Assembly: GCA_019057475.1 (NCBI GenBank)
Contig: DXJO01000046.1
Location: 91,908-155,907 of the forward strand
DNA from: Candidatus Thorarchaeota archaeon
GTDB lineage: Archaea; Asgardarchaeota; Thorarchaeia; Thorarchaeales; Thorarchaeaceae
Direction: 5' to 3'
Length of the DNA stretch: 64,000 nucleotides
The notes beneath the pieces are model-generated. The model was not told the DNA's origin. It saw nothing but the letters and a program-made list of their open reading frames with translations, and made no database searches. Each line of letters opens with the position of its first letter. Within the stretch, counting starts at the first letter, position 1. Below, piece by piece: positions 13,754-13,822 of this stretch. A program made the translations under genes and the position numbers.

Positions 13754-13822
13754 AAGATCGTCATGGGACGGGAGATATTCGGTCCTGAGAACCTGCCCCA
13801 CAGGCAAGAGAAACAGATGTAA
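13754..13822 (+). repeat. R1, copy of the gene 3' end (reads KIVMGREIFGPENLPHRQEKQM*)
   Basis: Aligns codon for codon with 10113-10181. Confidence 0.92.

Follow-up and report, generated by a model that had tools for sequence, protein, structure and literature searches.

A cassette array punctuated by copies of an acyl-CoA dehydrogenase gene end in Thorarchaeota

Throughout a family of Thorarchaeota, the last 22 codons of an acyl-CoA dehydrogenase (ACAD) gene are repeatedly left behind as swappable one- or two-gene cassettes accumulate downstream of the gene. The window, a stretch of 64,000 nucleotides from one member genome (G000), contains the ACAD gene together with ~17 further copies of these codons and of the post-stop hairpin, all of them on the + strand, from 13.7 to 43.1 kb. 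Live ACAD ends in the family have been replaced by foreign ends, and the gene most often found directly behind the live end is predicted to encode a LAGLIDADG endonuclease.

Layout of the array and its spread in the family

The cassette array punctuated by ACAD-tail copies spans 33 kb. Its features are given below in order of position; R1 to R14 denote the copies.

8943..10181, +, acyl-CoA dehydrogenase (ACAD), 412 aa, anchor gene of the array (Pfam PF02771/02770/00441)
10116..10124, +, I-V-M codons, fixed left edge of the copies and putative cut or insertion point
10164..10181, +, CAAGAGAAGCAG core through the stop, zone where cassettes swap partners (from mapped junctions)
10182..10235, +, terminator-like post-stop hairpin and pyrimidine run, copied along with the tail (from the sequence)
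10597..13663, +, cassette 1: 202-aa protein, ArsR HTH protein, two membrane proteins
13754..13822, +, R1, full copy, unrelated sequence after the stop
13888..30737, -, cargo: 256-aa protein, beta-helix/NosD surface protein, flavodoxin, MFS transporter, 215-aa protein, 3068-aa surface protein
14736..14850, +, R2, full copy, arm partly decayed
18322..18383, +, R3, terminator portion only
19970..20139, +, R4, full copy, ~100 nt after the stop in common with the live end
21294..21331, +, R5, only core and stop
21365..21481, +, R6, full copy
30856..30978, +, R7, full copy
31487..31614, +, R8, arm decayed, pN/pS 1.0
31971..32098, +, R9, private arm variant common to R13 and to the copy behind the same small cassette in the sister species G001
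32147..42001, strand., cargo: DUF362 protein, 496-aa protein, FMN reductase, ABC pair, 247-aa protein, luciferase-like monooxygenase, UPF0047 protein
33196..33316, +, R10, TGA in frame
35886..35948, +, R11, terminator and core remnant
39927..40049, +, R12, arm with a 4-nt deletion
40405..40464, +, R13, core and arm, stop lost
41416..41508, +, R14, tail, terminator and half arm
42072..42085, +, core-only remnant closing the UPF0047 cassette, a cassette common to G005
42501..42569 and 43011..43060, +, final two remnants at the array end (core and hairpin; hairpin)

Orthologs of the anchor gene in the family are 80-93% identical to it. The copied hairpin reached z values of -2.5 in R4 and -1.9 in R7 and is weak in the live copy and R1. 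Read depth was even (~40) in the likely source run, and a single 9.9-kb contig covers R1-R3. Neither an endonuclease nor an integrase is among the genes of cassette 1 (10597..13663), whose 202-aa ORF (10597-11205) in the first slot is without a Pfam match and by eye resembles a DEDD/RNase H-type exonuclease. The 3068-aa surface protein (21531-30737) makes up one cassette, with beta-helix-like modules and 11 repeats of ~95 aa. One small cassette is present twice (31508-32030 and 39944-40464, 84% identity), and a 39-nt block common to 21153-21191 and 42452-42490 stands each time ahead of a core-only copy.

Further contigs of the same genome (C8, C22, C28, C42 and C51) carry copies as well. Those located away from ACAD comprise another small array, in a region rich in defence genes (C51:82563-88402), and two lone copies (C8:19048 and C42:383028). 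A tRNA-Sec was called by ARAGORN at C42:62504-62594.

The repeat profile matched 76 of the 86 family genomes, most of them several times, with a maximum of 35 copies in one genome. Among the single-record genomes, G044 (86% complete) and G086 (77% complete) are without an ACAD match. At the live-gene loci fetched, copies lie downstream of ACAD and none occurs within 10 kb upstream. Spacers between copies (n=210) have a median length of 1.24 kb and contain a single gene in 134 cases. Cargo orientation is mixed, with 170 genes on the minus and 115 on the plus strand (72 and 62, respectively, in single-gene spacers), and the 317 cargo proteins sampled at the ACAD site fall into 221 families.

Coding signature and mosaic structure of the copies

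An earlier note on this DNA had listed, for R1 (13754-13822) against the gene end (10113-10181), 9 synonymous codon changes, a TAG>TAA stop swap and 3 amino-acid changes, together with an open frame to the stop in R2, R4, R6, R7, R8 and R9; all of this was reproduced. Relative to the live end, the amino-acid changes of R1 are Y>N, Y>H and K>M. An open frame across 22 codons is weak evidence by itself. With a neutral expectation of 0.20-0.27 for the synonymous share (kappa 1-8), the synonymous excess of R1 gave p 6e-5 to 2e-4 (tested at a share of 0.26-0.30). Values of pN/pS against the live end were 0.07-0.20 for R1, R2, R4, R6, R7 and R9, and 1.0 for R8. Because the live gene itself stands 7 synonymous and 2 non-synonymous changes away from the copy consensus, the copy-versus-gene counts are not independent. 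The excess persists when nine copies are compared with their own consensus: 41 changes are synonymous and 54 non-synonymous (p 2e-4 to 4e-3), supporting the proposal that protein-level selection shaped the sequence that was copied. An even spread of changes over codon positions was not seen either: the 135 full copies gave 213/184/856, a ratio inflated because these copies were picked with a matrix favouring conserved first and second positions.

Several copies are decayed, as indicated by the pN/pS of R8, the in-frame TGA of R10, the 4-nt deletion of R12 and the lost stop of R13. Such decay is what local duplications of the gene end drifting neutrally, or an assembly artefact, could produce. 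We regard this explanation as refuted and thus extremely improbable in view of the synonymous excess, the family-wide recurrence with different cargo, the even depth and the bridging contig.

The live gene of the sister species G001 ends in PENLPYRQEKQK, the ending expected for an ortholog, and QEKQM is the ending of many ACAD orthologs. R1 differs from live ends of other species at 8-10 positions and from its own gene at 14, and residues typical of a lineage recur within copies (PECLP in G014, PDFLP in G010). The view that the segments are former ends of the enzyme holds to the extent that they go back to functional ACAD ends in this lineage and its relatives; it finds no support in taking each for an intact allele. 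For a use of the copies as alternative ends we found nothing in support. Live ends are not sampled at random among the copies: QK-type tails make up 23 of the 64 live ends and 2 of the 120 copies.

The copies have a sharp left edge: among 128 of them, picked on positions 9-47 only, the match to the gene is at least 0.81 from +3 on, partial from -5 to -2 and at background farther left. At this edge the flanks sort into 116 mutually unrelated groups, and the joints show small indels; comparison among the groups revealed no attachment arm conserved to the left of the edge.

Within the copies, two parts have different partners. Cassettes that are at least 90% identical upstream have the 48-nt arm in common (82-100%) and mostly not the sequence after the stop. 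Where the downstream cargo is common, tail and post-stop sequence are mostly alike and the arms are mostly near background. In the window, the arm of R10 is almost identical to that of the G001 copy behind the same DUF362 cassette, and the post-stop part differs. Junctions between G000, G001 and G005 map at CAAGAGAAGCAG or just past it. Contig joints from three other sediment studies likewise lie at or just after CAAGAGAAGCAG; being joints at repeats, they are ambiguous as to excised circular forms. The copies are therefore mosaics in which the 48-nt 5' arm goes with the cargo upstream of it, the stop and terminator go with the cargo downstream, and the switch lies near CAAGAGAAGCAG.

This structure bears on the literal model of the earlier note, according to which an integrase crossover took place at the left edge each time and the copies are intact alleles in order of age. 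The sharp edge would fit, as would older pairs with the same flank and synonymously different arms (8:3, 7:3 and 9:3), and decay does grow with distance from the gene in this window alone (Spearman -0.61, p 0.04). Across the family the correlation is -0.07 and not significant, so that an age gradient is missing there, as are conserved sequence left of the edge and a linked integrase. Close homologous cassettes retain the downstream arm and not the upstream one, contradicting the model for recent events. That copies are chimeras joined near the core, as homologous cassettes in different genomes reveal, speaks against each being one intact former allele. Likewise, an ordered record of alleles is at odds with the cassette order, which differs between sister species: one cassette holds a different rank in G000 than in G001. 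Together with the mosaic copies, this change of rank means that the array is not a simple chronology, and we consider the literal model quite unlikely.

Replaced live ends and the adjoining endonuclease

The claim that former ends were displaced is substantiated by pairs of alleles, which show that live ends have been replaced by foreign ones. The ACAD genes at loci L115 and L118 are identical across 310 codons and up to codon -29, followed by heavy divergence to the stop; L115 has an endonuclease gene and L118 is without one. Divergence between G000 and G001 starts at codon -18, and that between G100 and G101 at codon 0 (10 of 16 codons vs 0.12, p 2e-6). Left breakpoints that vary inside ACAD indicate homology-driven repair and not one fixed crossover.

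The commonest gene in the first slot encodes a protein of 560-1040 aa, is convergent to ACAD and is often followed by a HerA/FtsK-like ATPase gene. The protein matches Pfam LAGLIDADG_3 and contains two LAGLIDADG motifs with invariant acidic residues. Its AlphaFold model (pLDDT 87.6) had PI-SceI, I-SceI, I-DmoI and related endonucleases as top Foldseek matches; by this model, the protein has a LAGLIDADG endonuclease fold with both catalytic acidic residues kept. Of 63 live ends, 20 have the gene or a remnant of it no more than 500 nt behind them, compared with 2 of 246 internal copies (Fisher p 2e-13, kin not being independent). All four homologs retrieved by protein search are convergent to ACAD and located 22-55 nt behind it. 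One of the two internal cases follows a rare QK-type copy, which is the expectation for a displaced end carried by the element. In relatives, the endonuclease sits between a replacement end and the displaced end (G014, G071, L102, L109, L111, L113 and L120). Live ends linked to an endonuclease match the copy consensus less well at the edge (p 0.005).

The ACAD-clade endonuclease is absent from G000, the window included. A truncated member of the LAGLIDADG family stands behind another gene at C18:17714-18637; at this locus G004 has a 1539-aa frame and a 5.7-kb block that sits on C42 in G000.

Endonuclease subfamilies group by neighbouring gene. Other subfamilies adjoin ETF-alpha-, carboxyltransferase-, Sec61-beta- and GTPase-like genes, named by sequence resemblance (L222-L246). 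A filled and an empty allele of another gene were found in G006 and G000, respectively: the 4,205-bp insert of G006, missing from G000, includes a family member of 941 aa and comes with a new C-terminus and a displaced tail of 26 nt. At two loci the endonuclease lies between duplicated 5' parts of a gene (L259 in G100, 254 nt, 91%; L270 in G046, 140 nt, 78%), which suggests that N-termini are replaced too. A duplicated gene end was not seen at 18 of 21 other endonuclease loci, where short tails would fall below detection, and an extra ETF-alpha tail was not found in G083 and G101.

These observations lead us to favour, with modest confidence, a model in which a homing element brings the replacement end, a cut sets the sharp left boundary and cassettes are shuffled when copies recombine with one another. 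The element would consist of a replacement C-terminus with its terminator, an endonuclease gene facing ACAD and often the HerA/FtsK-like ATPase gene. Its endonuclease would cut the uninvaded ACAD allele at the I-V-M codons. Repair from the donor DNA, with left homology in ACAD, would then supply the live gene with a foreign, synonymously diverged end and a co-converted tract of variable length. While the replacement of live ends is shown, we infer the cut as its cause. The old tail would end up behind the copied-in DNA, starting at the cut, and the right join may form at the cut end, with unrelated flanks and small indels, or against a donor copy. Subsequent recombination between copies, resolving near the CAAGAGAAGCAG core, would insert, delete and reorder cassettes and render the copies mosaic. 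The endonuclease may later decay or be lost, as in G000, and displaced arms may decay. In the weakest step of the model, endonuclease-free cargo would enter when the cut is repaired from a template with other genes in the first slot. Since only 2 of 246 internal cassettes contain an endonuclease remnant, most copies do not each represent one invasion by the element itself. Against the model stand the absence of an ACAD-clade endonuclease from G000, the 18 of 21 other endonuclease loci at which a duplicated gene end was not seen, and the copies on C8, C42 and C51, away from ACAD.

Homologous recombination alone, with DNA of relatives anchored on the left in ACAD and on the right in any copy, could have spread a few founder duplications. 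It would cover the variable left breakpoints, the switch at the core and the missing enzyme, and offers no reason for the position of the endonuclease in the first slot. The 116 unrelated flanks at the same edge further argue that new joints were made there repeatedly, and recombination alone has in our estimate a low probability.

Recombinases and known mobile systems

Tandem islands at the 3' end of a gene are formed by SCC elements at rlmH and by the accretion of cis-mobilizable elements. Accretion of this kind is the model for another explanation, in which a site-specific recombinase supplied in trans by a provirus or helper moves integrase-less cassettes at the 8-bp core AGAGAA(A/G)C and the endonuclease is a mere passenger. 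Recent exchanges do switch at the core, and nearly all copies are of the QEKQ type. In addition, an insert of ~100 bp is found between core duplicates, with a terminal half-site inverted relative to the post-core one, in up to 13 genomes (its end pattern matched in 13 of 86). It starts with AGATG/AAATG directly after the 8-bp core and ends in a palindrome and CATCT, often with a second core next; sites are G000 C22 ~12696, C28 ~14933 and ~15903, C51 ~86208 and ~88380, L152 and L157. The insert resembles a MITE or a minimal recombinase substrate. A partial copy in G013 lies 1.1 kb from an integrase gene, the only one of 48 integrase loci with a copy nearby.

A recombinase in trans leaves the 48-nt codon-patterned homology left of the core, the fixed edge and the deep ACAD replacement tracts unaccounted for. 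PF00589 was detected in only 29 of 86 genomes versus copies in 76, and no tyrosine recombinase occurs in 1.2 Mb of array loci. Among five genomes checked, a serine recombinase was not found in G056 and G010, and the arm was matched by no viral contig. All in all, we judge this explanation to be fairly improbable. The strong bias to QEKQ tails and the ~100-bp core-targeting insert suggest a second, core-specific activity, a point against the homing model.

An integrase tied to the arrays was sought and rejected: G000 has 8 tyrosine recombinases, none of them inside the array. Recombinases are absent among the common cargo families, and a reverse transcriptase was not found in five genomes. PF00589 matched in 8 of 23 high-quality family genomes; it went undetected in most family genomes, which thus apparently have no resident XerA. 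A viral source was discarded as well; contigs were without an arm match, and the palindrome was matched once, in a giant-virus bin rich in AT, apparently by chance.

The closest counterparts are fungal mitochondrial mORFs with C-terminal duplication, described for atp6 of Allomyces and for atp6, atp9, cox2 and nad3 of Glomus (PMC3630166); duplications of cob and atp6 are likewise reported from fungal mitochondria (PMC6279837). As in mORFs, relatives have a free-standing LAGLIDADG gene that follows a replacement C-terminus of foreign origin and precedes the displaced native tail, and the replacement end is foreign with respect to the empty allele both in ACAD (L115/L118) and in another gene (G006/G000). 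Unlike mORFs, the elements reside on an archaeal chromosome, with the endonuclease on the opposite strand behind a terminator and often with an ATPase gene. Up to 35 copies per genome, with ordinary cargo between them, are a further difference, and not every duplicated end is accompanied by an endonuclease or remnant (2 of 246 internal copies, none in the window). The array as a whole differs from mORFs because most units are without an endonuclease, while single units in relatives display the mORF features examined. The literature covered suggests that such an end-replacement mechanism has been described only for fungal mitochondria.

Tandem ssrA islands of Dehalococcoides are bounded by repeats of ~20 bp, and 16 of the islands have a serine-recombinase module (PMC3146451). 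Similar to ssrA and SCC islands, direct repeats of the target 3' end bound tandem units that vary by strain, some without an integrase. The Thorarchaeota repeats, unlike those of the ssrA islands, comprise 66 nt plus a terminator and are mosaics with a codon pattern, and a recombinase module was not found with them. With integrons and CALINs, archaeal ones included (PMC9668308), the arrays share small, mostly single-gene cassettes whose content and order vary by genome, a likeness in layout only. They differ in that no IntI or attI adjoins the array, the cargo is not co-oriented and the repeat reads as the end of a protein-coding gene (the ACAD tail by translation) and is probably not an attC palindrome; the ACAD-tail repeat matched no Rfam family. 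A literature search for Thorarchaeota with integration site, integrase or LAGLIDADG, outside of which most subscription papers lay, returned no paper on this system.

In a broader and more tentative picture, which we think possible yet doubtful, Thorarchaeota may possess a platform in which a homing endonuclease acts in trans and repair of its cut at the ACAD end pastes in unrelated accessory genes together with a fresh gene end, giving integron-like arrays without a recombinase. The findings point to a LAGLIDADG nuclease family with predictable targets and call for caution in phylogenies, since some conserved Asgard genes carry foreign patches at their 3' ends. They offer a concrete, testable route for the gain and reshuffling of accessory genes in Asgard archaea. 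If true, the mitochondrial strategy of homing with a replacement end would extend to a prokaryotic chromosome and be tied to cassette arrays.
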